Numbered from the stretch's first letter, positions 4,290 to 32,000 are shown. The stretch: DNA of 32,000 bases from Kineococcus radiotolerans SRS30216 = ATCC BAA-149 (GCF_000017305.1 NC_009664.2:3480001-3512000), one strand, 5' to 3'. Translations and numbers: made by a program. The notes: generated by a model not told the origin, from the letters alone.

Positions 4290-4364
4290 CAGCTCGCAGG
4301 AGCCGGCCCGTCCCGCCCCCGCGCCCCTCCCGCGGGCTCGTCCGCCCCGGCGGTCGCCATGCCC

Positions 4365-4370: not shown

Positions 4371-4377
4371 GGCCCGA

Positions 4378-4471: not shown

Positions 4472-4480
4472 GAGGAAGAA

Positions 4481-4888: not shown

Positions 4889-6084
4889 CCGGCGACGCGG
4901 ACCCCTGGCGGCCGGACACCACCGCGGTGCGCGGGGGGTTGGCGCGCTCGCAGTTCGAGGAGACCGCCGAGGCGCTCTACCTCACCTCCGGCTACGTGTA
5001 CGAGAACGCCGCCGCCGCCGAGGCCGCCTTCTCCGGCGAGACCGACCGCTACGTCTACTCCCGCTACGGCAACCCCACCGTCTCGGTGTTCACCGAGCGC
5101 CTGCGGCGGCTGGAGGGCGCCGAGGCCTGCTACGGCCTCGCCAGCGGGATGTCGGCGGTGTTCTACGCCCTCGCCGCCCTGCTCGGGGCCGGCGACCGGG
5201 TCGTGGCGTCCCGCAGCCTGTTCGGTTCCTGCTTCGTGGTCCTCGACGAGATCCTGCCCCGGTGGGGCGTCAGCACGGAGTTCGTCGACGGCGAGGACCT
5301 CGCGCAGTGGGAACGGGCGTTGTCCACCCCCGCCCAGGCGGTCTTCTTCGAGACGCCGGCGAACCCCATGCAGACCCTCGTGGACGTCGAGGCCGTCAGC
5401 GGGCTCGCGCACGCCGCGGGGGCGACCGTCGTCGTGGACAACGCCTTCGCCAGTCCCGTCGGGCAGCGCCCGCTGCGGTTCGGCGCCGACGTCGTCGTGT
5501 ACTCGGCGACCAAGCACATCGACGGCCAGGGCCGGGTCATGGGCGGGGCGGTGCTCGGGACGTCGGAGTTCATCGGCGGCCGGTTCCAGGAACTCACCCG
5601 GCACACCGGCCCGACCCTCAGCCCGTTCAACGCCTGGACCCTGGCGAAGGGGCTGGAGACCCTCGGCCTGCGGGTGCGGCACTCCGCGGCCACGGCGCTG
5701 CGGATCGCCGGGCACCTGGAGCAGGTGCCCGGGATCCGGTGGGTCCGCTACCCGCTGCTGCCCAGCCACCCGCAGTTCGACCTGGCGCAGCGGCAGATGG
5801 AACTCGGCGGCACCATCCTCACCTTCGAGCTCGACGCCCCCGCGGGCCGGGGCAAGGACCGCGCCTTCGAGGTGCTCGACGCCCTGCGGGTCGTCGACAT
5901 CTCCAACAACCTCGGCGACGCGAAGTCGCTGGCCACCCACCCGGCCACCACGACCCACCGCCGCCTGGGGGCCGAGGGCCGTGCGGCCATCGGCCTGACC
6001 GACGGGGTGCTGCGGTTGTCGGTGGGGCTGGAGGACCCCGACGACCTGCTCGAAGACCTCGACCGCGCCCTGCGCGCGACCTGA
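4885..6084 (+). CDS. metZ: O-succinylhomoserine sulfhydrylase (PLP-dependent Cys/Met metabolism family)
   Basis: RPDTTAVRGGLARSQFEETAEALYLTSGYVYENAAAAEAAF is a typical MetZ N-terminus, and YSATKHIDGQGR carries the PLP lysine. I chose GTG 4885 (GTGA overlap with rhodanese). The longer track ORF from 4576 overlaps the rhodanese gene out of frame. Confidence 0.9.
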   Translation: MTGDADPWRPDTTAVRGGLARSQFEETAEALYLTSGYVYENAAAAEAAFSGETDRYVYSRYGNPTVSVFTERLRRLEGAEACYGLASGMSAVFYALAALLGAGDRVVASRSLFGSCFVVLDEILPRWGVSTEFVDGEDLAQWERALSTPAQAVFFETPANPMQTLVDVEAVSGLAHAAGATVVVDNAFASPVGQRPLRFGADVVVYSATKHIDGQGRVMGGAVLGTSEFIGGRFQELTRHTGPTLSPFNAWTLAKGLETLGLRVRHSAATALRIAGHLEQVPGIRWVRYPLLPSHPQFDLAQRQMELGGTILTFELDAPAGRGKDRAFEVLDALRVVDISNNLGDAKSLATHPATTTHRRLGAEGRAAIGLTDGVLRLSVGLEDPDDLLEDLDRALRAT

Positions 6085-6097
6085 ACGGAGACGAACC

Positions 6098-7318
6098 ATG
6101 CCCGAGCGCCACATCCCCGTCAGCCACGCCGGCAGCCTGCCCCGCACCCCCGAGCTCATCGCCGCCAACGAGGCCCGCCGGATCGGGGAGGACGGGTTCA
6201 CCCTCGAACGCACCCCCGAGTTCGACGCGCTGCTCACCGACGCGGTCGTGGACCTCGTGCAGCGCCAGCGGGACCTCGGGGTCACGATCGTCGGCGACGG
6301 CGAGTACGGCAAGGCCATGTCCAGCGCCGTCGACTACGGGGCCTGGTGGTCCTACTCCTTCCAGCGCGTCGCCGGGCTGGAGGTGACCGGAGAGGACCTG
6401 TTCACCCAGCCCGTCGTGCGCTCGGAGCCGGGGAAGGTCCGGCTGACCAGCTTCCCCGACCGCCGCGACTGGGTGCGGTTCCGCGAGGCCTACCAGGACC
6501 CGACGTCGGGGATCTCCACGGGCAAGAACGCCACCGCGTTCCCGGCGACGACCGGCCCGCTGTCCTACACCGGCCACGACGCCATCGCCTCCGACATCGC
6601 CAACCTCAAGGCCGGCCTGGCCGCCGCGGGCGTCGAGGAGGGTTTCATCACCTCCCTGTCCCCGGGCAGCGGGGCGCGCATCTCCAACCGGTACTACGCG
6701 ACCGAGGAGGAGCACATCTGGGCGTGGGCGGACGTCCTGCGCGAGGAGTACCGGGCCGTCGTCGACGCGGGGCTGATCCTGCAGATCGACGACCCCTCCA
6801 TCGCGGAGAACTGGGACCAGATCAACCCCGAACCCTCCGTCGAGGACTACCGGGCGTTCACCCGCACCCGCGTCGAGGCCCTCAACCACGCGCTGCGCGG
6901 TCTGCCCACCGAGCAGGTCCGGTTCCACCTGTGCTGGGGTTCCTGGCACGGCCCGCACACCACCGACGTCGAGTTCAAGCACATCGTGGACCTCATGCTG
7001 GAGATCGACGCCGGCTCGTACTCCTTCGAGGCGGCCAACGTCCGCCACGAGCACGAGTGGAAGGTGTGGCGCGACGTCGCCCTGCCCGCGGGCAAGAAGA
7101 TCGTGCCGGGCATCGTCAGCCACGCCACGAACGTCGTCGAGCACCCCGAGCTCGTCGCCGACCGCATCGAGCGGTTCGCCTCCGTCGTGGGTCCGGAGAA
7201 CGTCGTCGCCTCGACCGACTGCGGTCTCGGCGGGCGCATCCACCCGCAGATCGCCGTCGCCAAGCTCGCCACCCTCGGCGAGGGTGCGCGCCTGGCCGGC
7301 GAACGGCTCTTCGGGTGA
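6098..7318 (+). CDS. Cobalamin-independent methionine synthase II family protein (short MetE-like, catalytic barrel only)
   Basis: 406 aa, homologous to the MetE C-terminal domain. Zn-ligand motifs HLCWG and TDCGLGG are present. SD GGAGA lies 6 nt before the ATG, 13 nt after the metZ stop. Confidence 0.85.
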   Translation: MPERHIPVSHAGSLPRTPELIAANEARRIGEDGFTLERTPEFDALLTDAVVDLVQRQRDLGVTIVGDGEYGKAMSSAVDYGAWWSYSFQRVAGLEVTGEDLFTQPVVRSEPGKVRLTSFPDRRDWVRFREAYQDPTSGISTGKNATAFPATTGPLSYTGHDAIASDIANLKAGLAAAGVEEGFITSLSPGSGARISNRYYATEEEHIWAWADVLREEYRAVVDAGLILQIDDPSIAENWDQINPEPSVEDYRAFTRTRVEALNHALRGLPTEQVRFHLCWGSWHGPHTTDVEFKHIVDLMLEIDAGSYSFEAANVRHEHEWKVWRDVALPAGKKIVPGIVSHATNVVEHPELVADRIERFASVVGPENVVASTDCGLGGRIHPQIAVAKLATLGEGARLAGERLFG

Positions 7319-7325
7319 GCACCCC

Positions 7326-8132
7326 GTGACCGCGGCCTCGGGGGAGGCCGCGGCCTGGGCGCTGTGGCAGGACTCCCCGTGGGGCCGGTTGCGCTACCGC
7401 GTCGTCGCCCGGGTCCTGCGGGAGTGGTGCGCGGAGCTGGGCGGGGAACCGCTGCGGGTCCTGGACGCCGGCGGCGGGGACGGGCGGGACGCCGTGCAGT
7501 TCGCCCTCGCCGGTCACGCGGTGACCGTCCTCGACCGGTCCCCGGAGATGCTCGCCCTGGCGCGGGCCGCGGCGGGCGCCGCCGGGGTCGGGGACCGGCT
7601 GCACACCGTCGCCGCCGACCTGGAGGACCTCACCGCGCTGGCCGCGCTGACCCGTCACCGCGAGGGCGGTTCGGGGTCCTTCGACGTGGTGCTGTGCCAC
7701 GACGTCCTGCAGCACCGGCGCTCCCACGAGCAGGTCCGCGCCGACGTCGCCACCCTCACCTCCTCCGTGCGGCCCGGGGGGCTGGTGTCCCTGCTCGCCC
7801 CCGACCCCGCGGCCGACGTCGTCGCCACGGTCCTGCGCGAGGGGCCGGCCGCGGCCTGGATCGTCCTGGACGCCGAACGCGCCCTCGACCCGGGGACCGG
7901 CCGTTCCGCGCTGCGGCTGTCCCCGGAGTTCGCCGAGGACGCGCTGACCGAGGCCGGGTGCGACGTCGCCCAGCGCGCGGGGATCCTCGCCGTCACGACG
8001 CTGCTGGAGGAGGCCGAACGGGTCGACGACCGGGCCGCGGCCGACCTCGAGGAGCTCGAGGTGGAGCTCAGTCGGCGGGAGCAGTTTCGCGGGACGGCGC
8101 GCTACTGGCTGATCGGGGGCCGACGACGCTGA
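7326..8132 (+). CDS. Class I SAM-dependent methyltransferase
   Basis: Motif I is VLDAGGGDGRD, followed by VTVLDRSPEMLALAR. GTG 7326 avoids overlap with the upstream gene. ATG 7284, in the same frame, is the alternative start. Confidence 0.75.
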   Translation: MTAASGEAAAWALWQDSPWGRLRYRVVARVLREWCAELGGEPLRVLDAGGGDGRDAVQFALAGHAVTVLDRSPEMLALARAAAGAAGVGDRLHTVAADLEDLTALAALTRHREGGSGSFDVVLCHDVLQHRRSHEQVRADVATLTSSVRPGGLVSLLAPDPAADVVATVLREGPAAAWIVLDAERALDPGTGRSALRLSPEFAEDALTEAGCDVAQRAGILAVTTLLEEAERVDDRAAADLEELEVELSRREQFRGTARYWLIGGRRR

Positions 8133-9984: not shown

Positions 9985-10153
9985 GAGGGCTCCTGGGGAG
10001 GGGATCCGGCGGGGACTCCTCAGGAACAGGTGGCGCCGTGGGTGCGGCACAGGTCGACGTGGCGACGGCGCACCAGTCGCCCGTTCGTCGCTCCCGCGGT
10101 CCGCACCCGGCCAGTCTAGGTGCCCGGCCCGGGCCGCGGCCTCCCGCGCGGGG

Positions 10154-14786: not shown

Positions 14787-16127
14787 ATGAACCGCCCCAC
14801 CACCGAGTCCGAGTACCTCGCCGGCCTCGTGCCCGCGTCCGCCGGCCGCCACGGTTTCAGCCGCCGGTCGATGCTGCGCGGCTCGATGCTCGCCGCCGGG
14901 ATCCCCGCCCTGCTGGCCGCCTGCGGCGGCGGTGGCGAGACGTCCGGGGGCGGTGGGGGCGGCTCCCAGGTCACCCTCGGCTCGAACTTCTCCGACGAGG
15001 TCCCGCTCAAGACGATGAAGGCGATGGTCGAGGACGCCCAGCAGAAGCAGGGCATCTCGATCAAGCTCAACACCGTCGACCACACCACCTTCCAGAACAA
15101 CATCAACAACTACCTCCAGGGCAGCCCCGACGACGTCTTCTCCTGGTTCGCCGGGTACCGGATGCAGTTCTTCGCCGCCCAGGGCCTCGCCTCCGACATC
15201 AGCGACGTGTGGTCCACCGTCGGGGCCAACTACACCGACGCCTTCAAGAAGGCCTCCACGGGCGAGGACGGCAAGCAGTACCTCGTCCCCACCACCTACG
15301 GCCCGTGGGCCGTCTTCTACCGCAAGTCCCTCTGGGCCGAGCGCGGCTACCAGGCCCCCACCACCCTCGACGAGATGACCGCCCTCTCCCAGCAGATGCA
15401 GGCCGACGGCCTGGTGCCGCTGGCGTTCGCGGACAAGGAGGGGTGGCCGGCCATGGGCACCTTCGACCAGCTCAACATGCGCATCAACGGCTACCAGTTC
15501 CACCTCGACCTCATGGCCGGCGAGGAGGCCTGGACCGACCAGAAGGTCAAGACGGTCTTCGACACCTGGCGCGGGCTCCTGCCCTACCACCAGACGGACT
15601 CCCTCGGCCGCACCTGGCAGGAGGCCGCGAGCGGCATCGTCAACAAGACGTCCGGGATGATGGTCATCGGCTCCTTCATCGGCCAGCAGTTCGAGGAGGC
15701 CGACCAGGAGGACATCGACTTCTTCAACTTCCCCGAGGTCGACCCGGCCATCGGCGCGGACGCGGTCGAGGCCCCCATCGACGGCTTCATGATGTCCAAG
15801 CGCCCCCGCAACGAGGAGGGCGCCAGGAAGCTGCTGGAGTACTTCGGGTCCCCCGAGGACGGCGTCGTGCAGACCACCAACGACCCCTCCGGCATCGCGG
15901 CGAACTCGAAGTCCGACCAGGGGCACTACACCGAGCTGCAGAAGAAGTGCGCCGAGTTCGTCGCGAACGCGGCCTCGATCTCGCAGTTCATGGACCGCGA
16001 CACGCGTCCCGACTTCGCCTCGACCGTCATGATCCCCTCGCTGCAAACCTTCATCTCGAACCCCGCCGACATCGACGGTCTCTGCAACGACATCGAGAAC
16101 CAGAAGAAGAGCATCTTCACCTCCTGA
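14787..16127 (+). CDS. ABC transporter substrate-binding lipoprotein (CUT1 sugar family)
   Basis: ATG 14787 with SD GAAGGAG. Tat-like SRRSMLRG and lipobox LLAACGG. Family-1 solute-binding body. The much longer open frame upstream (from 11358) is artefactual. Confidence 0.9.
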   Translation: MNRPTTESEYLAGLVPASAGRHGFSRRSMLRGSMLAAGIPALLAACGGGGETSGGGGGGSQVTLGSNFSDEVPLKTMKAMVEDAQQKQGISIKLNTVDHTTFQNNINNYLQGSPDDVFSWFAGYRMQFFAAQGLASDISDVWSTVGANYTDAFKKASTGEDGKQYLVPTTYGPWAVFYRKSLWAERGYQAPTTLDEMTALSQQMQADGLVPLAFADKEGWPAMGTFDQLNMRINGYQFHLDLMAGEEAWTDQKVKTVFDTWRGLLPYHQTDSLGRTWQEAASGIVNKTSGMMVIGSFIGQQFEEADQEDIDFFNFPEVDPAIGADAVEAPIDGFMMSKRPRNEEGARKLLEYFGSPEDGVVQTTNDPSGIAANSKSDQGHYTELQKKCAEFVANAASISQFMDRDTRPDFASTVMIPSLQTFISNPADIDGLCNDIENQKKSIFTS

Positions 16128-16137
16128 GGAGCGTCCC

Positions 16138-20920
<4,783 letters not shown>

Positions 20921-20938
20921 CCCGGGCGGCGCGGGCCC

Positions 20939-21787
20939 TCACCGCGCCCCCGCCGGGACCGGGCGGGCGGCGCGGTAGGCGCCGGGGGAGCAGCCGCAGG
21001 CCCGCGCGAAGTGCGCGTACAGGCTGCTCCCCGACCCGAACCCGGCGGCGTGGGCGACGGCGGCCGTCGTCATCGACGTGGTGAGCAGCAACCGCTGCGC
21101 CTCGGCGATCCGGTGCCGCAGCAGCTGGTCGCCGAGGGTGACCCCGGTGGCGCGGCGGAACAGGGTCGTGGCGTAGTTCGGGTTCAGGTTGGCCGCCCGG
21201 GCGATGTCGGCGGCGGAGATGCGGTCGCGGAAGTTCTCCGCGGTGTAGCGGGCCATCAGCGCGACCGGCCGCAGGTCGGGCCGGGGACGGGGGGTCGGTG
21301 CCGGACCGCGGTGCCCCAGGATCCTCAGCACCATGGCGTTCGCCTCCAGCAGCATCGCCTCGGTGTCCGGCTCGGCCCCGCGGGGGTGGGCCAGGTCGCG
21401 CTGCCAGGTGGTGAACAGCCCCTCCACGTGCGGGCCGATCACCGCGGTGGGCACCACGACGGTGCGCTGCGACATCACCGTCGCCGAGAACGCGGCGGGC
21501 AGGGACCACCGCAGGACGACCGCCAGCGGGAGGTGCACCCAGCAGGTGTCGCTGTCCCGCGGCCCGTCCGAGGAGAGCAGCCGGTGCGGCGCCGCGGCCC
21601 AGAACACGGCCGTGGACCCCTCCGGCACGCTGACCCGCTCGCCCCCCACCAGGTACTCCAGCGAACCCCGCAGCGCGACGTTGACCTCCAGGTCGTCGTG
21701 GCGGTGGAACTCCCGCATGGGCGGCGCCGACCCGCGGTGCACCCAGAGGGCGGGCTCGACGACGGTGAGAGCGTCCACGGGGGTCAC
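20939..21787 (-). CDS. AraC family transcriptional regulator (cupin N-domain plus dual HTH)
   Basis: C-terminal AraC HTH: ADIARAANLNPNYATTLFRRATGVTLGDQLLRHRIAEAQRLL...VAHAAGFGSGSSLYAHFARACGCSPGAYR. Confidence 0.88.
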   Translation of the reverse strand: MTPVDALTVVEPALWVHRGSAPPMREFHRHDDLEVNVALRGSLEYLVGGERVSVPEGSTAVFWAAAPHRLLSSDGPRDSDTCWVHLPLAVVLRWSLPAAFSATVMSQRTVVVPTAVIGPHVEGLFTTWQRDLAHPRGAEPDTEAMLLEANAMVLRILGHRGPAPTPRPRPDLRPVALMARYTAENFRDRISAADIARAANLNPNYATTLFRRATGVTLGDQLLRHRIAEAQRLLLTTSMTTAAVAHAAGFGSGSSLYAHFARACGCSPGAYRAARPVPAGAR

Positions 21788-23204: not shown

Positions 23205-23236
23205 GTCGTCCCCTCCGCCGCGGCGGAGGGGACGAC
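23205..23236. terminator. Perfect 32-nt palindrome between convergent genes (bidirectional terminator candidate)
   Basis: GTCGTCCCCTCCGCCG/CGGCGGAGGGGACGAC gives a stem of about 14 bp. It lies 6 nt after the GH27 stop and 7 nt after the sfnB-like stop. Confidence 0.6.
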
Positions 23237-23242: not shown

Positions 23243-24457
23243 TCAGGTGTAGAGGGTGAAGCCCGGGTGGGCACCGGTGAGGAAGTGGTGGCCCACCTCG
23301 CGGGCCTTGTACTGCACCGGGTCGTGCAGGGTGTGGGTGCGGACGTTGCGCCAGAACCGGTCGAAGCCGTACCGGTTGCTCGTCGCCCGGGCCCCGGTCA
23401 CCTCGTAGATCGCCGAGGTCGCCTCGACGGCCAGGTCGGAGGACACGACCTTCAGCGCCGCGATCTCCTCGGCCACCTCGCCGCGTTCGGCCCAGGTGAG
23501 GTCCGGCCCGCGCTCGTGGGCCTGCGACAGCGACTCGCCCGCGCTGCGCCCCAGCGCCTCCGCCGCGCGCAGCCGGGCGACGAGACGGCCGTAGGTCGCC
23601 AGCACGTACGGGTCCTCGACGGCCTCCCGCACGTCGGAGAGCAGCCACGGCCGTGACGTGGTGCGGGTGTACTCCGCGGCCGTCTCCAGCGCCCCGCGCG
23701 TCACGCCGAGGTAGAAGTGCCCGAACGCGGCCTGGATGGCCGGGGTCACCAGCGAGCCGAACGCCCCGCTCTCCGACGCCGAACCGAGGACCGCGTCGGG
23801 GGTGATGCGGACGTCGTCGAAGCGGACGGAACCGCTGGCGGACAGCCGCTGCCCGAGGTTGTCCCAGTCGCCGCCCTTGACGAAGCCCGGCGCGTCGCGC
23901 GGCACGACGACCAGCAGGTCCTTCCCCGTGTCGTCGGCGACACCGCCGACCACGGTCACGTCCCCGACGCTGGCGCCGGTGGAGAAGCTCTTCGTGCCGC
24001 GCAGCAGGTAGCCGTCGCCGTCGCGGACGAGCTGCAGGTCGGGGTCGACGGGGTTCACCGAGTCCCCCCACAGCCACTGCCGCGCCGCGGAGGGGACGCC
24101 CCAGCGCCGGCGGCCCGCCTCGTCGGCGACCCAGACGAGGTTGTGGGCGTTGACGTAGTGGTAGGCCAGCAGCTGCGCGATCGACCCGTCGGCGCGCGCG
24201 ATCTCGCGCACGACGTCGAGGCCCACCGACCACGGCAGGCCGCCGCCCCCGACCTCCCGGGGCAGCAGGACGCCCGGCAGACCGGCCCCGCGCAGCAGCT
24301 CGGCCTCGGCGGAGGGTTCGGCGTTCGCGCGGTCGCGCTCCAGGGCGTCCAGCGCGAGGCGGTCCGCGACGCCGCGGGCGGCGTCGAGGACCTGCTCCGC
24401 GGTGGTCGCCGTCCCGGCGGTCGTCTCGATCTCGGTGGTGGTCACGGCTCTCCTCAC
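23243..24457 (-). CDS. SfnB/DszC-type sulfur-acquisition flavoprotein (acyl-CoA dehydrogenase fold)
   Basis: ACAD-fold body and a C-terminal FDRFWRNVRTHTLHDPVQYK signature typical of the SfnB/DszC group. GTG 24457 overlaps the upstream stop (GTGA). Alternative GTG 24445 is preceded by GAGGAG. Confidence 0.85.
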   Translation of the reverse strand: MRRAVTTTEIETTAGTATTAEQVLDAARGVADRLALDALERDRANAEPSAEAELLRGAGLPGVLLPREVGGGGLPWSVGLDVVREIARADGSIAQLLAYHYVNAHNLVWVADEAGRRRWGVPSAARQWLWGDSVNPVDPDLQLVRDGDGYLLRGTKSFSTGASVGDVTVVGGVADDTGKDLLVVVPRDAPGFVKGGDWDNLGQRLSASGSVRFDDVRITPDAVLGSASESGAFGSLVTPAIQAAFGHFYLGVTRGALETAAEYTRTTSRPWLLSDVREAVEDPYVLATYGRLVARLRAAEALGRSAGESLSQAHERGPDLTWAERGEVAEEIAALKVVSSDLAVEATSAIYEVTGARATSNRYGFDRFWRNVRTHTLHDPVQYKAREVGHHFLTGAHPGFTLYT

Positions 24458-25836
24458 ACCCGCTCGCGGTTCAGCTTGTGCGCGGCGGCGGGGTGGTCGT
24501 CGCGCACGTGGACCTGGCCCTTGCCGTAGATCGTCTCCCGCAGCGTCTCGCCCTCGTACTCGGTGGGGTAGACCCCGCGGCGCTGCAGCTCGGGGACGAC
24601 GAACTCGACGATGTCCTCGAAGGTGCCGGGGGTGATGGCGTAGGCGCAGTTGAACCCGTCGACGTCACCGACCTCCATCCACCGCTGCAGCTCGTCGGCC
24701 ACGGTGGTGGGGGAGCCGACGACCACCGCACCCATCCCGCCGATGCCGACCCAGTTCGCGATGTCGCGCGGGGTCCACTTCCGGTCCGGGTCGGCGGTGG
24801 AGAACGCCTCGACGGCGCTGCGCACGGCCTCGGTCTCGGCGTACTCCAGGGGCTCGTCCGGCGGGTAGCTGGAGAGGTCCAGCCCGCTCCAGCCGCCGTA
24901 GAGGTTCAGGGCGCCGTCGTAGCTGACGTGCTGCGCGTAGTCCTCGTACTTCGCCCGGGCCTCCTCGTCGGTGGCCGCGGTGATGATCGTGACCAGGGTG
25001 AAGACCTTGATGCTGCGCGGGTCGCGGCCGGCCTCGGCGGCCGCGGCGCGCAGCCGGTCCACCCAGGGCCGCATGACCTCCGGGCGGGTGGCGGTGTTGA
25101 AGACCGCCTCCCCGTGGCGGGCGGCGAAGGCGATGCCGCGCGGGGAGGCCCCGGCCTGGAAGATGACCGGCGTGCGCTGGGGGGAGGGAGCGGTCAGCCC
25201 GATGCCGGGGACGTCGAAGAACCGGCCGTGGTGCTCGATCGGGTGGACCTTCGCCGGGTCGGTGAACACCCCGGCCTCGGCGTCGCGGACGACGGCGTCG
25301 TCCTCCCAGGAACCCTCCCACAGCTTGTAGACGACCTCCATGAACTCCTCGCCGAGCTCGTACCGCTCGTCGTGGGAGATCTGCGTCGACAGGCCGAGGT
25401 TCCTCGCCGCGGACTCCAGGTAGCTGGTCACGACGTTCCAGCCGACGCGGCCGTTCGTGTAGTGGTCCAGCGTCGCCAGCTTGCGGGCGAAGGAGTAGGG
25501 CTGCTCGTAGGTCAGCGACACCGTGACCCCGAACCCGAGGTGCTCGGTCACCGCGCCCATCGCGGACACCGCGAGCAGCGGGTCGCCCACCGGCACCTGC
25601 GTCGACTCGCGCAGCGCCGTCTCCGGGCCCCCCTTGTAGACGTCGTAGACCCCGAGGACGTCGGCGATGAACAGCGAGTCGAACCGGCCCCGTTCCAGCA
25701 GCTTCGCCAGTCCGGTCCAGTACCGGATGTCGTCGAAGCGGTGCGACTCGTCGTCCGGGTGCCGCCACAAGCCCGGGGACTGGTGGCCGACGCACGTCAT
25801 GTCGAAGGCGTTGAGGTGGACCCTGCGGTCAGTCAC
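24454..25836 (-). CDS. NtaA/SnaA/DszA-family FMNH2-dependent (LLM class) monooxygenase
   Basis: N-terminal HLNAFDMTCVGHQSPGLWRHP is the family signature. 460 aa. I chose GTG 25836, 14 nt after the permease stop and preceded by GGGAG. The 687-aa track ORF extends through the permease gene. Confidence 0.9.
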   Translation of the reverse strand: MTDRRVHLNAFDMTCVGHQSPGLWRHPDDESHRFDDIRYWTGLAKLLERGRFDSLFIADVLGVYDVYKGGPETALRESTQVPVGDPLLAVSAMGAVTEHLGFGVTVSLTYEQPYSFARKLATLDHYTNGRVGWNVVTSYLESAARNLGLSTQISHDERYELGEEFMEVVYKLWEGSWEDDAVVRDAEAGVFTDPAKVHPIEHHGRFFDVPGIGLTAPSPQRTPVIFQAGASPRGIAFAARHGEAVFNTATRPEVMRPWVDRLRAAAAEAGRDPRSIKVFTLVTIITAATDEEARAKYEDYAQHVSYDGALNLYGGWSGLDLSSYPPDEPLEYAETEAVRSAVEAFSTADPDRKWTPRDIANWVGIGGMGAVVVGSPTTVADELQRWMEVGDVDGFNCAYAITPGTFEDIVEFVVPELQRRGVYPTEYEGETLRETIYGKGQVHVRDDHPAAAHKLNRERV

Positions 25837-25850
25837 GGAGATCTCCCGAA

Positions 25851-26669
25851 TCACTTGACGGCGCCGGCGGACAGGCCGCCGACCAGCCACTTCTGGGCCA
25901 CGACCGCGAGCACGTACATCGGGACGATCCCGACGAGCGATGCCGCGGCCTGCTGACCGAACTGCACGGTGCGGTCCCCCTGGAACAGCGACAACCCGAC
26001 CGGCAGGGTCTGGCTGGAGGTGCTCTGGGAGAACGACACCGCGAAGAGGAACTCGTTGTAGGACAGGAACAGGCAGATCAGCAGCGCGGCGACGAGACCG
26101 GGAGCCAGCAGCGGCAGCACCAGGCGGCGCAGGCCCTGGCTCGTCGACAACCCGTCGACCCAGCCGGCCTCCTCGATCTCCAGCGGGATGCGCCGGACGA
26201 AGCCGTCCAGCAACCACACCGCCACCGGCACGTTCGCCAGCCCGTTCACCAGGACCAGCCCGAGCGCGGAGTTCGTCAGGTCGGCCTGCTTGAGCAGGTA
26301 GTACAGCGGCAGGACCGCGACGATCGGCGGTGCGCAGTAGCTGGCCAGCAGCAGCGTCTGCAGGCGCTCCCCGCGGACCCCCGCGCGGGCGGTCACGTAG
26401 GCCGCCGGCACCGCGACGACCGAGGTGAGCAGGGTCGCGCCGATCGCGACGACCCAGGAGTTCACCAGCATCGTCGACAGCGGGACCGTCTCGAAGGCCC
26501 TCGCGAAGTTCGACCACACGAACGCGGTGGGCAGCCAGCCGCCGTTGGCGATGTCGTCGACGCTGCGCAGCGACAGCGACGCCATGAACAGCACGGGCAG
26601 CAGCGCCACGAACGCGACGAGCGCCAGGACCAGCCGCAGACCGCTGCGGCGCAGCGCCGTCGCGGTCAC
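25851..26669 (-). CDS. ABC transporter permease (MalG-like, CUT1 type)
   Basis: Six TM segments and EAA loop EEAGWVDGLSTSQGLRRLVLP. GTG 26669 overlaps the upstream stop (GTGA). Confidence 0.9.
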   Translation of the reverse strand: MTATALRRSGLRLVLALVAFVALLPVLFMASLSLRSVDDIANGGWLPTAFVWSNFARAFETVPLSTMLVNSWVVAIGATLLTSVVAVPAAYVTARAGVRGERLQTLLLASYCAPPIVAVLPLYYLLKQADLTNSALGLVLVNGLANVPVAVWLLDGFVRRIPLEIEEAGWVDGLSTSQGLRRLVLPLLAPGLVAALLICLFLSYNEFLFAVSFSQSTSSQTLPVGLSLFQGDRTVQFGQQAAASLVGIVPMYVLAVVAQKWLVGGLSAGAVK

Positions 26670-27616
26670 CGGTCCGCCCGCACGGCGCGTGCCCGCAGCA
26701 GCGTGACGACGGTGGTGAGGACGCCGACGACGAGACCGAAGACCAGGGTCTCCGCGGCGGCGGTGCCGATCTCGTAGCTGCCGCGCATGCCCGTCCGGAA
26801 GATCTCGAAGCTGCTGACGATGGTGGAGACCCCGGGGCCGCCCTGGGTGACGACCGTCACCAGGTCGAACACCTTCAGCCCGATGACCAGCTCCAGCAGC
26901 AGCACGGAGAGGACGTTGGGGGCCACGACCGGCCAGACCACCGAGGTGAACGTGCGCCACGGCCCGGCGCCGTCGAGCGCCGCGGCCTCGCGCAGTTCCT
27001 CGGGGACCCCGAGCAGGGCCGCGAACACCAGCAGCGTCACCAGCGGGGTCCACTGCCAGACGTGCATGACGACGAGCGCGCTGAACGCGCCCACGCCGTC
27101 GCCCAGCGGGTTCGCCCCCGGGAACCCGATCGCGGAGAACAACCCCCCGAACGCCCCGCCCACGGGGGCGAGCATGAGCTTCCACGCCACCCCGACCATG
27201 ACCGGCGGGGTGACCAGCGGCAGCAGCAGGATCGTCCCGACGACGCCGAAGCGGGTGCCGCGGGCGTGCAGCAGCAGGGCGAGGACCACGCCCAGCGCCG
27301 TCGCCGCCAGGGCCGCGACCACCGCGAACACCACCGAGCGGAGCAGGGAGCCGGCGAAGGCCAGCGACTCCCAGGCTTCGACGAAGTTGTCGGTCCCGGT
27401 GAACCGCTGCAGCGGCCGGGCCAGGGAGGACTTCGTGAACGCCAGCGCCACGACGAACACCGTCGGGTAGACGAGCATCAGCGCGAGCCCGGCCAGGCTC
27501 GGCGCGGCCAGCCACGTCGAGACGTGCCCGGGGCGGTGCCGGCCGGGCACGCCCCGGCGGGGACCGCCGCCGCGCTGGCGGGGCAGCGTCCCCCGGTCGT
27601 CGAGGACCTGGGTCAT
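26666..27616 (-). CDS. ABC transporter permease (MalF-like, CUT1 type)
   Basis: EAA loop EAAALDGAGPWRTFTSVVWP. ATG 27616 overlaps the SBP stop (ATGA). Confidence 0.9.
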   Translation of the reverse strand: MTQVLDDRGTLPRQRGGGPRRGVPGRHRPGHVSTWLAAPSLAGLALMLVYPTVFVVALAFTKSSLARPLQRFTGTDNFVEAWESLAFAGSLLRSVVFAVVAALAATALGVVLALLLHARGTRFGVVGTILLLPLVTPPVMVGVAWKLMLAPVGGAFGGLFSAIGFPGANPLGDGVGAFSALVVMHVWQWTPLVTLLVFAALLGVPEELREAAALDGAGPWRTFTSVVWPVVAPNVLSVLLLELVIGLKVFDLVTVVTQGGPGVSTIVSSFEIFRTGMRGSYEIGTAAAETLVFGLVVGVLTTVVTLLRARAVRADR

Positions 27617-28989
27617 CCGAGTTCCGCCTCCCAGCTCTCCGCCGCCTTGTCGAGCGCGGCCTGCGGGTCCTCGCTGCCCTGGATGGCCAGGGCGAGCTGG
27701 TCGACGAGGTCCTGCAGCGCCTTCGGCGCCCCGGCCTGGCTGGGCCACGCCAGCGGGTCGCCCTCCAGCCCCTCGCGGATGACGTCGGTGGCCTTCCCGG
27801 CGGCGGCGGCGTACTCCGCGGAGGCGAGGACGCTGGTGCGCGCGGGGTCGATGCCGGAGCCGGCGGTGGAGGCCAGCAGGAAGTTGCGGTCCTTGTCGGT
27901 GGCCCACTTCACGAAGGCCGCGGCCTTGTCCTGCTGCGCCGACGCGCTCGAGACGCCGAGGCCGAAGCCGGCGTCCAGGGCGCTGCGCGGGGTGGTGTTC
28001 GACCCGCCGACGGGGAGGGTGACGACACCCCACTTGTCGACGATCTTCGAGCTCGACGGGTCCTGCGCCTTCAGGCCGAGGTCGGTCCAGGTGTCCAGCA
28101 TCGCGCCCTGCCCGGAGAGGAAGGCCGAGTTGGCCTGGTCGAAGCCGGTCTGCAGCGGCGTCGGCAGGGCGTGCGGGGAGACGTCGACGAGGTGCTGCAG
28201 GGCGGCCAGGCCCTCCGCGCCGGCGAAGGCGGGCCGGCCGTCGGCGTCGACGAGGGTGCCGCCGTAGCCGGCGAGGCGGTTGATGAAGGAGCAGCCGAGG
28301 ATCATGGGGACCTGCTGGCCCTCGACGATGGCGCCGTAGACGCTGCCGCCGGAGTCCTGGGTGATCTTCGCGGCGGCGGCGTCGTACTCGTCCCACGTCG
28401 TCGGGGGCTGCACGCCGTACCGGTCGAAGACCTCGGCGTTGTAGTAGAGGACGTGGGTGTCGCCGTCGAAGGGCAGGCCGTAGCGCTTGCCGTCGAGCAG
28501 CGTGTAGGGGTCGTAGATCGAGGGCAGGAAGTCGTCGGTGGCGATGTCGGGGTTGGCGCCGATCCAGTCGGTCAGGTCGATCAGCGCGTCGGCGTTCACC
28601 AGCTCGCCCAGGCCGAAGTAGAAGTAGTCGAAGACGTCGAACTCGCCGTCGCCGCCCTGCACGTCCAGGATCTGCTTGCTCGTCAGCTGGTCGTAGGGGA
28701 TCGCGGTGACCTCGAGCTTCCCGCCGAACTCCGCCTCGAACCTCGGCCCCAGCAGGTCGGTGAAGGCCAGCACGTGCGGCTGGTTGACCATCAGCTTGAT
28801 CGTCGCGCCCTGCAGGTCGACGGCGGCGTCGGCGGCGAGGCCGGCGGTCGTCCCCCCGTCGCCGCAGGCGCCCAGGCCGCCGGTGGCGGCGAGGGCGCCG
28901 ACCCCCAGGGCGGAGGACAGGACCCGCCGGCGGGTCGCGGTCGGGCGGGCGTTCGCGGCGGGCAGGGGGGTGCGACGGGGCGCGGACAT
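27613..28989 (-). CDS. ABC transporter substrate-binding lipoprotein (family 1/CUT1 sugar-type), ligand unknown
   Basis: Tat-like TRRRVLSS and lipobox GGLGACGDG. Family-1 SBP body. SD GGAG lies 8 nt before ATG 28989. Confidence 0.9.
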   Translation of the reverse strand: MSAPRRTPLPAANARPTATRRRVLSSALGVGALAATGGLGACGDGGTTAGLAADAAVDLQGATIKLMVNQPHVLAFTDLLGPRFEAEFGGKLEVTAIPYDQLTSKQILDVQGGDGEFDVFDYFYFGLGELVNADALIDLTDWIGANPDIATDDFLPSIYDPYTLLDGKRYGLPFDGDTHVLYYNAEVFDRYGVQPPTTWDEYDAAAAKITQDSGGSVYGAIVEGQQVPMILGCSFINRLAGYGGTLVDADGRPAFAGAEGLAALQHLVDVSPHALPTPLQTGFDQANSAFLSGQGAMLDTWTDLGLKAQDPSSSKIVDKWGVVTLPVGGSNTTPRSALDAGFGLGVSSASAQQDKAAAFVKWATDKDRNFLLASTAGSGIDPARTSVLASAEYAAAAGKATDVIREGLEGDPLAWPSQAGAPKALQDLVDQLALAIQGSEDPQAALDKAAESWEAELG

Positions 28990-29070
28990 GGGTGTGCTCC
29001 GGGGGGTAGGCGGACGTCGGGGGTCCGTCGGGGTGCGCTGAGCGCGGGGGAGGGGTGGTGAGGGGTGCGG

Positions 29071-29095
29071 CGCGGACGGTCTCAGACCGTGCGCG
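29071..29095 (-). other. Stable hairpin in the leader between riboswitch copy 2 and the SBP gene
   Basis: ACGGTC/GACCGT (6 bp, 3-nt loop) is extended by CGCG/CGCG across one mismatch. On the RNA a C-rich tract follows it. Confidence 0.35.
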
Positions 29096-29210
29096 GCACC
29101 CCGCGGCGCACCGGTGCGCGGTCACCGCACCGCGCGGAGGCGGTGCGGGCGAGGTCGACGTGGCGGCGCCGGGTGAGCGGGAGCGGGGTAGGGCTGTGCA
29201 CTGCGTTCCT

Positions 29211-29294
29211 CCATCGCCCCTGGCGGGAGCACCTGCCGCTGCGCGGTGGTTGCTGTGGCGTCGTCGAGCCAGGTCTCTCGGCCACTCTGGATGG
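29211..29294 (-). promoter_or_regulatory. SAM riboswitch aptamer (SAM-I/SAM-IV clan, with no internal P4), copy 2
   Basis: The minus strand reads CCATCCAGAGTGGCCGAGAGACCTGGCTCGACGACGCCACAGCAACC-P3(CCGC GCA GCGG)-AGGTGCTCCCGCCAGGGGCGATGG. It matches copy 1 at 44 of the first 47 nt, including a compensatory C-G to U-A change in P2. The same CCTGG/CCAGG pseudoknot potential is present. Confidence 0.85.
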
Positions 29295-29304
29295 TGTTGC
29301 CGGG

Positions 29305-29310
29305 AGCGTA
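29305..29310 (-). promoter_or_regulatory. Candidate -10 box TACGCT for the riboswitch copy 2 transcript
   Basis: The same CTACGCT heptamer as upstream of copy 1, ending 10 nt before P1. Confidence 0.35.
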
Positions 29311-29690
29311 GCGGACGCCCCGCTCCGGCCGCGACCTCCTCGGGGCGTCGGCGTCCCGGTGCGCCGGGACGGGCGGAGCGGGCTGTGCCACACTGTCAGT
29401 GGTCGAGCGTTCCCCACACCGGGCGCCCGGCCCGCCGTCGAGACCGCCGCCCTGCGCGCGGGTCCCGGGCAGCGCCGCGGTCCAGTGGAAGGACCTCGCA
29501 GGCGCCCCGGCCCACGCGCTGGACGTCGACCGCCGGCGGCACGAGCGGAGGCCCGCGACGAGCGCGGGCACGCTGGTGCACCGAGGACTTCCGTCGGGTG
29601 CGGGACGACCCACCCGGCGATTCCGACCAGGACGCTCGCGCGACCGTGGGTTCACCGGTGGAGCGGTCGTCGCGGGCGAGCGGAGCACCC

Positions 29691-32000
29691 GTGACGACCA
29701 CACCCGAAGAGAACGCCGCCCCCACCGCCGAGGGCGCAGCCACCGCGCGCCCCCGTCGACGCCGCGCCGCCAGCCGCCCCGCCGGTCCACCGGCCCGCGT
29801 CCAGCCGGAGAGCGCGCCGGCCGAGCCCGCCGCGCCGGCGGCGTCGGAGTCGACGCCCGCCGTGGAGCCCGCCGCCGAGCCGGTGGTCGAGGCCCCCGCC
29901 GTCGAGGCCCCCGCCGTCGAGGCCCCCGCGGCTGAGACCCCTGCGGCCGAGGTCCCCGTCGTCGAGACCCCCGCGGTCGAGGCTCCCGTCGAGGCGGTCG
30001 CCGCGGCCGAACCCGCCCCGCGTCGCCGGACCCGCCGGGCGACCCGCAAGGTCGCCGCCCCGGCGGAGACCGTGGTCGAGCCCGCGGCCGTGGCCGCCCC
30101 GGCCGAGGTCCCGTCGGAGCCCGCGCCCGCACCCGAGACCGCCGCCGAGCCGGTCGCCGAGGCCCCCGAGGCCCCGGCCGCGCCCGCCCGTCGTCGCCGG
30201 AGCCGCAAGGCGGTCGCGCCCGCCCCCCTCGCCGAGGCCCCCGCCGTCGAGGCCCCCGCCGTCCCGGAGGTCGAGGCGCCCCGGACCGAGGTCGTCGCCG
30301 TCGCCGAGGACGCCCCGGTGGAGGAGACCCCCGTCGAGACCCCTGTCGCGGCCGCCGTCGAGGCGCCGGCCGCGCCGGCTCCCGTCGCGGCGACCGCCCC
30401 CGCCGCGCCCGCCGAGCAGCCCGACCTCATGGACGACCCCGTCCTCCTGCGCGCCGCCGGGTTCGCCCAGGGCCGCCGCGCGCCCTCCGAGGGCGAGCGC
30501 GCCGCCGACGCGGCCGCCCGGGCGACCGCGCTGTTCTTCCAGGCCCCCGTCGACGAGGCGCCCACCCGCCGCAGCCGCCGGGCGTCCGCCCCCGCGGGCC
30601 CGCCGCCCGTCAGCGACCGGGAGGCCCCCGCCCTCGACGAGGACGACGACCTCCTCCTCGACGACCTCCTCCCCGGAGCGGACGACGAGGCCGGTGAGGA
30701 CGCCCCCGAGCTCGACGGCGACGCGCCCGGCTCGGCCGAGGACGGCGACGAGGAGCAGGACGAGGACGGCGGCGCCCCGCGCCGACGCCGTCGCCGCGGT
30801 GGCCGCGGCCGCCGCAGCCGCACCCGCGAGGACGGCGAGGCCGACACCGACGAGGAGCCCACCGAGGCCGGCGAGGTCGGCGAGGCCCGTGACGGGTCCG
30901 ACGACGAGGAGCCCGAGGCCGGCGCGTCCGCCTCCGACGACGAGGACGAGGACGGGGAGGAGCCCAGCGGCTCCTCGCGCCGCCGTCGCCGCCGTCGTCG
31001 GCGCAGCGGGGCCGGGGAGACCGAGGACGGCTCGCCCGACGACCCGCCCAACACCGTCACCCGGGTCCGCGAGCCGCGTCGCCCGCGCACCGGCGCGGCG
31101 ACGACGGGCGGCACCGGCGAGGACGAGATCACCGCGCTCAAGGGCTCCACGCGCCTGGAGGCCAAGAAGCAGCGCCGCCGCGAGGGCCGCGAGCAGGGGC
31201 GCAAGCGGGCCATCCTCACCGAGGCCGAGTTCCTCGCCCGCCGCGAGGCCGTCGAGCGCGTCATGGTCGTGCGCCAGCAGGCCGACAAGACGCAGATCGG
31301 TGTCCTCGAGGACGGGATCCTCGTCGAGCACTACGGGGCGAAGCTCGCCCAGACGACGATGGTCGGCAACGTCTACCTCGGCCGGGTGCAGAACGTGCTG
31401 CCCAGCATGGAGGCCGCCTTCATCGACGTCGGCAAGGGCCGCAACGCCGTCCTGTACGCCGGCGAGGTGAACTGGGACGCCGCGGGCCTGGAGGGCCAGC
31501 CCCGCCGCATCGAGGCCGCGCTGAAGTCCGGCGACCCCGTCCTCGTCCAGGTCACCAAGGACCCCGTCGGCCACAAGGGCGCGCGGCTCACCAGCCAGGT
31601 CTCCCTGCCCGGCCGCTACCTGGTCTACGTCCCGCGCGGGTCGATGACCGGCATCTCCCGCAAGCTGCCCGACACCGAGCGCGCGCGGCTGAAGAAGGTC
31701 CTCAAGCAGGTCGTGCCCGAGGGGGCGGGCGTCATCGTGCGCACCGCCGCCGAGGGGGTCGCCGAGGAGGAGCTGGCCGCGGACGTGCAGCGCCTGCAGG
31801 CGACGTGGGAGGCCATCCAGGCCAAGGCGTCGAGCAAGAACGCGCCCGTCCTGCTGCACGGGGAGCCGGACCTGACCGTCCGGGTCGTGCGCGACGTCTT
31901 CAACGAGGACTTCACCAAGCTCGTCATCTCCGGCGACGAGGCCTGGGAGACCGTGCGCGGTTACGTCGACGACGTCGCCCCCGACCTCGCCGAGCGCCTC
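29691..32000 (+). CDS. rne: Ribonuclease E (RNase E/G family), 5' part; it continues past the window end
   Basis: This frame is open from before 29600 to base 32000, so it has no stop and is missing from the ORF track. From about 31263 the S1/catalytic core appears: MVVRQQADKTQIGVLEDGILVEHY...VGNVYLGRVQNVLPSMEAAFIDVGKGRNAVLY...VQVTKDPVGHKGARLT...GVIVRTAAEG. It is preceded by about 520 aa of Pro/Ala/Glu, poly-Arg and acidic low-complexity sequence. I chose GTG 29691 (GGAG 5 nt upstream). In-frame GTGs at 29646 and 29658 are alternatives. Confidence 0.88.
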   Translation, partial: MTTTPEENAAPTAEGAATARPRRRRAASRPAGPPARVQPESAPAEPAAPAASESTPAVEPAAEPVVEAPAVEAPAVEAPAAETPAAEVPVVETPAVEAPVEAVAAAEPAPRRRTRRATRKVAAPAETVVEPAAVAAPAEVPSEPAPAPETAAEPVAEAPEAPAAPARRRRSRKAVAPAPLAEAPAVEAPAVPEVEAPRTEVVAVAEDAPVEETPVETPVAAAVEAPAAPAPVAATAPAAPAEQPDLMDDPVLLRAAGFAQGRRAPSEGERAADAAARATALFFQAPVDEAPTRRSRRASAPAGPPPVSDREAPALDEDDDLLLDDLLPGADDEAGEDAPELDGDAPGSAEDGDEEQDEDGGAPRRRRRRGGRGRRSRTREDGEADTDEEPTEAGEVGEARDGSDDEEPEAGASASDDEDEDGEEPSGSSRRRRRRRRRSGAGETEDGSPDDPPNTVTRVREPRRPRTGAATTGGTGEDEITALKGSTRLEAKKQRRREGREQGRKRAILTEAEFLARREAVERVMVVRQQADKTQIGVLEDGILVEHYGAKLAQTTMVGNVYLGRVQNVLPSMEAAFIDVGKGRNAVLYAGEVNWDAAGLEGQPRRIEAALKSGDPVLVQVTKDPVGHKGARLTSQVSLPGRYLVYVPRGSMTGISRKLPDTERARLKKVLKQVVPEGAGVIVRTAAEGVAEEELAADVQRLQATWEAIQAKASSKNAPVLLHGEPDLTVRVVRDVFNEDFTKLVISGDEAWETVRGYVDDVAPDLAERL
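29886..29990 (+). repeat. Seven tandem 15-bp units (GTCGAGGCCCCCGCC-like) encoding (V/A)E(A/T/V)P(A/V) pentapeptide repeats inside rne
   Basis: Units start at 29886, 29901, 29916, 29931, 29946, 29961 and 29976. The first two are identical. Further copies occur near 30232-30280. Confidence 0.8.

Follow-up and report, generated by a model that had tools for sequence, protein, structure and literature searches.

A SAM-I riboswitch positioned on a leader-peptide reading frame upstream of a putative organosulfur uptake and oxidation operon in Kineococcus radiotolerans

Introduction

In Mycobacterium tuberculosis, the Mbox and B12 riboswitches act through upstream open reading frames (uORFs), with Rho termination (PMC12810186, PMC11260477). 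At pe20, where an Mbox element responding to Mg2+ acts on the uORF rv1805A (PMC12810186), and at metE and ppe2, where the ligand is B12 (PMC11260477), the expression platform lies on the Shine-Dalgarno (SD) sequence of a conserved uORF and not on that of the first enzyme gene. Homologous uORFs also occur elsewhere without a riboswitch, and these actinobacterial systems have no intrinsic terminator and a C-rich region downstream. Here, we analyze a stretch of 32,000 nucleotides from Kineococcus radiotolerans SRS30216 (ATCC BAA-149; NC_009664.2, 3480001-3512000), hereafter the window, with positions counted from its first nucleotide and a G+C content of about 75%. In it, a predicted S-adenosylmethionine (SAM)-I riboswitch that resembles the M. 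tuberculosis elements in the placement of its expression platform, in the riboswitch-free copy of its uORF, in the lack of an intrinsic terminator and in the C-rich downstream region stands before five genes encoding a sugar-type importer and two flavin monooxygenase components.

Two further groups of described systems bear on this locus. Sulfur and cysteine operons of mycobacteria are preceded by leaderless polycysteine short open reading frames (sORFs), collectively the "Cys ribulon"; these keep the operon locked off as long as the sORF is not translated and turn it on when a ribosome stalls (bioRxiv 10.1101/834739). Among scavenging clusters, ssu, msu/sfn, dsz and Corynebacterium seu combine a luciferase-like monooxygenase (LLM), an acyl-CoA dehydrogenase (ACAD)-fold monooxygenase and an ABC importer; they are expressed according to sulfur status, and their reductase is often encoded elsewhere. 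The sulfoquinovose monooxygenase (sulfo-SMO) pathway of Agrobacterium has a CUT1 importer layout, with a substrate-binding protein (SBP) and permeases encoded alongside an LLM for a sulfur-bearing sugar. In addition, NtaA-family monooxygenases are induced in sulfur-limited Rhodococcus (PMC8557817).

A first-pass annotation of the window had described a SAM riboswitch gating the importer, an enzyme pair analogous to DszC and DszA of the 4S pathway, and a polar, sugar-like methylthio or thioether substrate, for example a 5-methylthioribose-type by-product of SAM. The general idea of organosulfur salvage is supported by both the gene families and the regulatory evidence presented here, while the target of the riboswitch, the enzyme assignments and the favored substrate have all shifted. 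On balance, we consider it reasonably probable that this is a sulfur-starvation operon for the uptake and oxidative C-S cleavage of a hydrophilic organosulfur compound, under two-input control by SAM and probably cysteine.

Results

The SAM-I aptamer overlaps the ribosome-binding site of a uORF

The riboswitch proposed upstream of the operon was recovered by the Rfam covariance model at 54.2 bits, above the gathering threshold of 44.4 (coordinates of all features are collected in Table 1), and orthologous aptamers score 48.4-58.3 bits with the same model. Over nine orthologous and paralogous aptamers, 98.7% of the cells in the four-helix junction are paired and three pairs carry compensatory changes. 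The covariation score lies above those of 500/500 shuffles, and every slid control scores lower. Because the sequences are closely related, we regard the covariation support for the aptamer as moderate. As a SAM-I element, it is predicted to bind SAM and to discriminate against SAH.

The 3' strand of the P1 helix, CGAUGGAGG, overlaps the SD sequence GGAGGA of a uORF whose GTG start codon lies 5 nt further downstream, which is the arrangement of a translational expression platform. Because the P1 helix and the SD share nucleotides, a P1 stabilized by SAM would occlude the SD of the uORF. The CGAUGGAGG(A) junction is identical in all orthologs and in four metagenomic loci described below, each of which shows the same order of junction, spacer and start. 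As the SD in P1 belongs to the uORF and the SBP gene begins 92 nt past the uORF stop, the expression platform appears to act on the leader uORF and not directly on the SBP gene. The notion of a riboswitch-led operon is upheld, but direct gating of the importer is not, since a uORF matching the NCBIfam family NF042934 (30.9 bits, cut-off 27) lies between the two.

A hexamer resembling a -10 element, TACGCT, is found 7 nt upstream of the aptamer and is probably a promoter element. In all seven orthologous loci examined, and at a sister riboswitch in the window, the aptamer is preceded at a distance of 7-9 nt by a GCTAnnnT hexamer; the presence of this hexamer at every aptamer examined suggests that transcription starts at P1. 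A scan for consensus sigma-70 promoters found nothing in the upstream region of the operon, as expected at 75% GC, so the promoter call is drawn from conservation only. No intrinsic terminator was found in the leader region.

The uORF encodes a peptide of a widespread leader family

The uORF is not called in the public annotation. NF042934, the family that it matches, is named "putative leader peptide" (cis_reg_atten), and literature searches returned no published description of it. The peptide also matches, more weakly, the Cys-rich leader families Ms4527A and Ms5788A (18.8 and 16.4 bits), both of which are experimentally validated Cys-responsive leaders. Its core, LTRRRHVDLARTASARC, ends at the invariant Cys codon of the family. 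The reading frame is kept in 12 orthologous leaders, with the consensus L(T/V)RRxHVDLxRTxSxxC; its Arg codons vary synonymously, and pN/pS is 0.70 in frame compared with 1.06 and 1.19 in the shifted frames. We predict that the uORF is translated and that it controls the genes downstream. No candidates came from a search for protein homologs in which the leader was lengthened to 44 aa, the peptide being too short and too divergent for the word index.

A different peptide is found at the same place in Quadrisphaera granulorum and in "Streptomyces sp. NP160", which grouped with Quadrisphaera and whose name is probably wrong. In these two loci (L017, 7688-7730; L018, 7785-7830) the uORF has 8 codons, reading VS(A/S)CMPxR and then stop, with adjacent Cys and Met. 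It recalls the metNIQ leader of S. lividans, which contains CMCRRMCAF (PMC8079986). Since it is not of the RRxHVDL type, it suggests that different sensor peptides can fill the uORF slot.

The leader family, with and without a riboswitch, precedes sulfur genes

A metagenome scan with the conserved leader core as query gave 120 matches, 52 of them in short ORFs clearly of the leader family. The first genes downstream of these leaders (39 distinct) include six SfnG/SsuD-type LLMs, six SsuE/MsuE FMN reductases, six OsmC-related proteins, four SsuA/TauA SBPs and three NirA/SirA-type sulfite/nitrite reductases. TauE/SafE exporters follow other leaders (confirmed by Pfam in L069 and L072, and recognized by eye in L096, L102 and L153), and further first genes encode a 2-oxoglutarate-dependent oxygenase, a carbonic anhydrase and a transporter of the major facilitator superfamily. 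Judged by the genes downstream of its members, NF042934 marks operons for the acquisition and assimilation of sulfur.

Among the 44 metagenomic leaders with at least 150 nt of upstream sequence, four have a SAM-I aptamer directly upstream of the leader (L060, L111, L140 and L163), detected with a covariance model of the aptamers and then by Rfam itself. Together with the window operon, the types of operon that carry this composite are the importer-monooxygenase, sulfite reductase-cysH and cystine-type transporter operons. Our literature searches found no description of a SAM riboswitch combined with a leader peptide at cysH or at sulfite reductase. One of the four, L060, has a further SAM-I aptamer at 4243-4338.

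The window also holds a second copy of the leader with no riboswitch. A -10-like TAGACT at 10113-10118 sits 6 nt before its GTG, for which reason this copy is probably leaderless, a likeness to the sORFs of the Cys ribulon. The gene 35 nt downstream of it encodes a protein with the FAD/NAD(P)-binding domain PF13454, which the leader copy implicates in sulfur metabolism.

A C-rich spacer and a hairpin separate the uORF from the importer genes

The 92 nt that separate the uORF from the SBP gene form a spacer rich in C and poor in G, which includes the SD of the SBP gene (GGAG, 28997-29000). Its C/G ratio is 3.06, and in all 14 orthologs the ratio lies between 1.7 and 3.1; for the window, the median is 0.97 and the 99th percentile 1.95. 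A C bias of this kind extends across the leader family (median 1.56 vs 1.08, p = 8e-11). From this composition, the spacer is a candidate Rho-loading (rut-like) region. An inverted repeat could form a hairpin with the uORF stop codon in its apical loop, and the stop lies in or beside the hairpin loop in most Kineococcus orthologs.

We considered a mechanism of the Canestrari type, in which a ribosome stalled at Cys codons relieves sequestration of the downstream SD. Accessibility was computed with the partition function under three conditions, with the leader free of ribosomes or with one ribosome placed on either the Cys or the stop codon, and the SBP SD showed no consistent change across 14 leaders; for this reason we do not claim an SD-sequestration mechanism. 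A global alignment of whole leaders with a consensus fold was unreliable in the variable middle, and no structural claims were drawn from it.

Gene arrangement and riboswitch are conserved in relatives

Synteny was sampled at 51 loci encoding relatives of the SBP, the closest of which belong to Kineococcus (76-89% identity). The order SBP-permease-permease-LLM-(SfnB)-ACAD is kept in Kineococcus, Quadrisphaera, Phytohabitans and one Micrococcales metagenome-assembled genome, and this arrangement is conserved well beyond chance. The riboswitch is found in all Kineococcus and Quadrisphaera loci with enough upstream DNA, either confirmed by Rfam (L001, L008, L010, L012, L017, L018 and L045) or as a match to the core motif (L002-L006, L009, L011 and L013).

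Seven relatives (L001, L005, L006, L009, L014, L016 and L045) hold an extra gene between LLM and ACAD. At L001 (12634-13830) it is a true SfnB equivalog, at 453.7 bits against a cut-off of 430.9; the other six are assigned by position. Because this gene is absent from the window, the operon studied here is a reduced version with five genes. The genes behind this transporter in Mycolicibacterium are those for a UgpC-like ATPase, which is part of the L021 cluster, for two ACAD-fold proteins and for a CE1758-type LLM.

Two of these loci have neighbors of some interest. In Phytohabitans suffuscus (L014), the riboswitch-less cluster lies directly downstream of metN-metI-metQ (4616-6777) and is co-directional with it, with about 1.2 kb (6778-7955) that is unassigned between them. 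At L021, a weakly GH5-like gene immediately upstream of the SBP gene (6770-7912; 24.7 bits, cut-off 23.5) could have hinted at a glycoside substrate, an idea that we rejected because the gene is confined to that locus; a distant homolog of its product is encoded in the window at 2671-3450.

The operon encodes a CUT1 importer and two flavoenzymes of mixed affinity

The five co-directional genes, their junctions and the terminal palindrome are present as first described. In order (SBP, permease, permease, LLM and ACAD), the first two junctions are ATGA and GTGA, the third is a gap of 14 nt that holds the Shine-Dalgarno sequence GGGAG, and the fourth is GTGA. The public annotation of an identical contig has these five genes as well, the sole difference being an ACAD start 4 codons downstream. 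The palindrome folds at -42 kcal/mol (z = -4.8), has no U tract and, again as expected at this GC content, was not picked up by a scan for consensus terminators; because it sits between convergent genes, it is probably a bidirectional terminator hairpin that lacks a U tract.

The transporter has the components of a CUT1 importer, a family-1 SBP with one MalF-like and one MalG-like permease. Its combination with two flavin monooxygenase components from sulfur-acquisition families agrees with the earlier description. The SBP carries an N-terminal Tat motif (TRRRVL) and a lipobox (LGAC). Its nearest solved relatives are the sugar/polyol binders 5iai (105.6 bits) and 4rya, labelled sorbitol (82 bits), and it matches the sulfoquinovosyl-glycerol binder SmoF (7nbz) at 64 bits. 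The upstream permease has UgpA and GlcT as its best NCBIfam matches (about 90 bits each, below the cut-offs), and the other has GlcU and MalG. A dedicated MalK/UgpC-type ATPase is absent, with no Walker A or LSGGQ motif in any frame across the 32-kb window. Shared ATPases of the MsiK type are common in actinomycetes. Flavin reductase and DszB families were also missing among the window ORFs scanned, as had been noted before, and none of the five operon genes is a DszB desulfinase or SsuA/DszB-like.

The LLM scores 574.7 bits with TIGR03860 (NtaA/DmoA; cut-off 279.7), compared with 72-75 bits for SsuD models and 68.6 for SfnG. Against solved structures, it matches DmoA at 577 bits, LadA at 491, HcbA at 356, riboflavin lyase at 332, DszA (5tlc) at 285, YtnJ at 254 and NtaA at 227; the proposed DszA-like identity is thus not borne out. 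It is 54.7% identical to DmoA of Hyphomicrobium sulfonivorans (6ak1), another member of TIGR03860, over 450 ungapped residues, and it conserves 18 of the 20 FMN- and substrate-binding residues proposed in PMC9259527, the changes being G231P and L367M. Because that list of residues was inferred from LadA, the agreement defines a clade and not a substrate. An enzyme of the DmoA type would cleave a methyl thioether to methanethiol and an aldehyde. Unlike dmoA, the LLM gene has no adjacent gene for a DmoB-like reductase, and the presence of an ABC importer and a DszC-like partner in the operon makes a volatile substrate such as dimethylsulfide unlikely.

The ACAD-fold protein belongs to the DszC/MsuC/SfnB group, as its first description as an SfnB/DszC-type flavoprotein implied, yet it is neither a DszC equivalog (298.2 bits, NF043015 cut-off 850) nor an SfnB equivalog (267.5 bits, TIGR04022 cut-off 430.9). 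In the PDB, it is about equally close to DszC (286 bits), MsuC (258) and 8cda (244). With the first enzyme below the DszC and SfnB cut-offs and the second not of the DszA type, the analogy to the 4S sequence of DszC and then DszA is not supported.

The operon resembles the ssu, msu/sfn, dsz and seu clusters in its enzymes and transporter, and the sulfo-SMO pathway in its layout, but having failed the tests for DszC, DszA, DszB, SfnB and SsuD-type enzymes, it shows the defining features of none of these systems. It differs from the four groups of clusters in having a CUT1 importer in place of SsuABC or TauABC, an LLM of the DmoA/LadA clade and no DszB, SsuE or MsuE, and in its apparent RNA- and ribosome-based control in place of CysB-, Cbl-, SfnR- or McbR-type proteins. 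From the sulfo-SMO system it differs in its LLM, which is not of the SsuD kind, in the lack of genes for a sulfoquinovosidase, a reductase and an ATPase, and in its SBP, which is distant from SmoF. Literature searches turned up no characterized pathway of this composition, in agreement with the first-pass annotation, and no description of the operon composition, of a SAM riboswitch with LLM and ABC genes, or of methylthioribose with a monooxygenase.

Table 1. Features of the leader and operon, of the rest of the window and of the metagenomic composites (rows with an L number refer to that locus; all others to the window)
Feature	Position	Strand	Basis or remark
-10-like hexamer TACGCT	29305-29310	-	7 nt upstream of aptamer; conservation
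SAM-I (S-box) riboswitch aptamer	29208-29297	-	RF00162, E = 5e-10
SD GGAGGA of uORF, within/overlapping P1 3' strand CGAUGGAGG	29207-29212	-	sequence and cmscan alignment
Leader-peptide uORF, GTG start, 39 codons and stop, VHSPTPLPLTRRRHVDLARTASARCGDRAPVRRGVPRTV	29082-29201	-	NF042934
Leader-peptide core LTRRRHVDLARTASARC, ending at invariant Cys codon	29127-29177	-	HMM positions 3-19; ortholog motif alignment
Hairpin with uORF stop codon (29082-29084) in apical loop	29064-29102	-	inverted repeat, 19-nt arms, 79% complementary
C-rich, G-poor spacer, uORF stop to SBP start; candidate Rho-loading (rut-like) region	28990-29081	-	60% C, 20% G
SBP gene, CUT1-type substrate-binding lipoprotein	27613-28989	-	PF01547 (SBP_bac_1), PF13416 (SBP_bac_8)
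ABC permease, UgpA/MalF-like	26666-27616	-	PF00528 (BPD_transp_1)
ABC permease, MalG/GlcU-like	25851-26669	-	PF00528 (BPD_transp_1)
FMNH2-dependent LLM, DmoA/LadA clade	24454-25836	-	TIGR03860
ACAD-fold flavoprotein monooxygenase, DszC/MsuC/SfnB group, in neither equivalog	23243-24457	-	NF043015, TIGR04022, PDB matches
Palindrome, perfect 32 nt, between convergent genes	23205-23236	.	16+16 arms
Second, riboswitch-free leader copy VRTAGATNGRLVRRRHVDLCRTHGATCS	10020-10106	-	NF042934, 27.7 bits, cut-off 27
FAD/NAD(P)-binding protein gene, 638 aa	8068-9984	-	PF13454; 35 nt downstream of second leader copy
Sister SAM-I riboswitch operon	4375-7318	+	aptamer 4375-4474, 49.5 bits
Rhodanese-like gene, first of sister operon	4481-4888	+	SD overlaps P1; no uORF
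MetZ, O-succinylhomoserine sulfhydrylase	4876-6084	+	NF005870, 730 bits, cut-off 618
MetE-like short methionine synthase, sister operon	6098-7318	+	
SAM-I-then-leader composite, L060	78-263		precedes cystine-type ABC permease
SAM-I-then-leader composite, L111	3248-3451	-	precedes NirA/SirA-type sulfite reductase, then cysH
SAM-I-then-leader composite, L140	2026-2201	-	precedes NirA/SirA-type sulfite reductase
SAM-I-then-leader composite, L163	710-965		sequence ends downstream of leader

Other features of the window

The sister riboswitch shares the design of the target operon, with an SD sequence in P1, and would act directly on the rhodanese-like gene. It has a TACGCT -10-like hexamer identical to that of the target operon. 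Elsewhere in the window, an island of lower G+C at 15000-18000 (0.65-0.66 compared with about 0.75) was possibly acquired horizontally, and it holds two further CUT1 permease genes on the plus strand (16033-17103 and 16995-18017). Long ORFs with high GC3 and no Pfam match are found at 29396-31859 on the minus strand, upstream of the riboswitch promoter region, and at 18070-21084 on the plus strand, near an AraC gene.

Discussion

In regard to regulation, the arrangement of the leader suggests a simple chain of events. At high SAM, P1 would be stabilized and the SD of the uORF blocked, so that the uORF would not be translated and the operon would remain off. At low SAM, the uORF would be translated, and its nascent peptide or its Cys codon (RRxHVDLxRxxSxxC) may serve as a second checkpoint dependent on sulfur or cysteine. 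The ribosome on the uORF would most likely keep Rho from loading onto the C-rich spacer of the transcript, or would otherwise permit translation of the SBP, and either a lack of uORF translation or its rapid completion would leave the operon off. The cysteine input and the Rho step are parts of this scheme that we infer, the Rho-type route from the composition of the spacer.

This scheme extends what is known of the M. tuberculosis elements. The ligand class is SAM here, rather than Mg2+ or B12; the uORF belongs to the widespread NF042934 family; and where Rho termination operates in M. tuberculosis, a candidate Rho step is suggested in K. radiotolerans by spacer composition. Because NF042934 is itself linked to sulfur operons, the riboswitch and the uORF plausibly sense two related metabolites. 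In the Cys ribulon, the locking off of an operon by an untranslated sORF is the logic that an upstream riboswitch would need. Its leaders resemble ours in being short ORFs that stop close to one or more Cys codons and stand before operons for sulfur or cysteine, and in a weak similarity seen in profile searches. They differ in that the K. radiotolerans leader has a single Cys codon in place of a run and a strongly conserved basic motif, RRxHVDLxR; its riboswitch-linked copy has an SD sequence and a 14-codon tail; and our computed folds did not reproduce the model of a duplex that sequesters the SD. Taken further, a SAM-I riboswitch on a leader-peptide ribosome-binding site may be a two-input RNA/ribosome AND gate (low SAM together with low cysteine or sulfur) reused at several actinobacterial sulfur operons. 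The peptide would then serve as a nascent-chain or codon sensor, and the operon would encode a pathway, so far undescribed, for a sugar- or polyol-like thioether that is cleaved by a DmoA-like enzyme. We advance this fuller version tentatively, at somewhat less than even confidence.

In regard to metabolism, a Tat-exported lipoprotein SBP and two CUT1 permeases would import a hydrophilic, sugar- or polyol-like organosulfur compound, powered by an ATPase supplied in trans. The LLM and the DszC/MsuC-like flavoprotein would then attack the sulfur center, and the products would be assimilable sulfur in the form of methanethiol, sulfide or sulfite. We infer the class of the substrate and the products from the gene families, and the sequence does not decide between methanethiol and sulfite. 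Because the leader family and the composite precede general sulfur genes, the regulation appears to signal general sulfur limitation and not specifically the salvage of SAM by-products.

Several observations weigh against this interpretation. The uORF has one Cys codon followed by a tail of 14 codons, and typical members of the family end 0-8 codons past the Cys. Most Kineococcus orthologs similarly continue for 13-15 codons past the invariant Cys, and the window uORF lacks the two or more consecutive Cys codons near the sORF end that characterize Cys leaders; a Cys pair is found in L009 and in several metagenomic members. When the footprint of a Cys-stalled ribosome was masked in silico, the SD of the SBP gene did not become accessible in a consistent way, the energies of the hairpin around the uORF stop are not significant against shuffles, and the C bias of the spacer is measured against window-wide values and not against other intergenic regions. 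The Phytohabitans and mycobacterial clusters have neither a riboswitch nor a recognizable leader, and no convincing leader of the Cys-rich or RRxHVDL type was found upstream of their SBP genes. On the enzymatic side, the nearest relatives of the LLM include the alkane hydroxylase LadA, from which the list of conserved residues derives, so that these residues are no proof of thioether specificity, and the solved relatives of the SBP are distant sugar/polyol binders, at 105 bits at best.

Alternatively, the operon may be dedicated to methionine salvage. A methylthio-sugar or -polyol, of the 5-methylthioribose type first suggested for this locus, would be imported, the DmoA-like LLM would release methanethiol with or without prior S-oxidation by the ACAD-fold enzyme, and MetZ/MetY would join the methanethiol to activated homoserine to form methionine. 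The close identity of the LLM to DmoA, which makes methanethiol from dimethylsulfide, is consistent with this notion, as are SAM-I control, the sugar/polyol type of the SBP, the sister SAM-I operon with MetZ in the same window and the MetNIQ genes directly upstream of the Phytohabitans cluster. The same riboswitch-leader device, however, also stands at sulfite reductase-cysH and at a cystine-type permease and so is no marker of methylthio compounds, and the genes found with the leader family deal with sulfonates, sulfones and sulfite. Furthermore, the mycobacterial transporter is paired with a CE1758-type LLM that is not of the DmoA type, and there is no riboswitch there; the operon encodes no kinase, isomerase or phosphorylase of the known methylthioribose and methylthioadenosine routes; and no pathway of this kind came up in the literature search. 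The regulation does not favor a by-product of SAM of the methylthioribose type, and the methylthio/methanethiol idea survives as an unlikely rival rather than as the leading account.

A sulfite-yielding pathway seems more doubtful still. Here, a sulfo-sugar or -polyol such as sulfoquinovose, sulfoquinovosyl-glycerol or dihydroxypropanesulfonate would be processed as a sulfonate, sulfone or sulfonate ester, with the ACAD-fold enzyme oxidizing a sulfinate or sulfide and the LLM releasing sulfite for cysteine synthesis, as in sulfo-SMO and Corynebacterium seu. A CUT1 importer together with an LLM matches the sulfo-SMO layout, SmoF is among the solved relatives of the SBP, the ACAD-fold protein resembles the methanesulfinate monooxygenase MsuC, and the leader family usually precedes ssu-, sfn- or tau-type genes and sulfite reductase. 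The LLM, however, is not of the SsuD, SmoC or SfnG type, as its scores with the SsuD and SfnG models set against that with NtaA/DmoA make plain; the SBP is closer to ordinary polyol binders than to SmoF; and no sulfoquinovosidase, sulfite exporter or SsuE-type reductase is encoded in the operon or the window. Finally, a non-sulfur function (for example, an oxidation that acts on amino-polycarboxylates, on alkanes or alkanols, or on secondary metabolites) with a riboswitch and leader that were acquired secondarily or are non-functional is very improbable: the NtaA/DmoA family does include nitrilotriacetate, EDTA, alkane, riboflavin and pristinamycin enzymes, and the flanking genes are ordinary sugar-utilization genes, but two genera have kept the riboswitch, the leader and the operon together, relatives carry a true SfnB equivalog as an insertion, and the genes with which the leader family occurs are almost all sulfur genes.

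Until now, the experimentally demonstrated cases of riboswitch action through a uORF have been the Mg2+ and B12 elements of M. tuberculosis, and the K. radiotolerans locus appears to be a SAM-I version of this arrangement. The occurrence of the composite at three or more types of operon offers a testable model of how high-GC Gram-positive bacteria may integrate methionine/SAM and cysteine status without protein regulators, and this work supplies functional context for the widespread family NF042934. Neither the regulatory nor the metabolic point is categorically new, and both extend known kinds of system. A CUT1 importer joined to a DmoA-clade LLM and a DszC/MsuC-like flavoprotein points to an uncharacterized hydrophilic organosulfur nutrient of soil actinomycetes, and the identification of this nutrient would extend the organic sulfur cycle by one more route and might also bring to light a new activity that cleaves C-S bonds.

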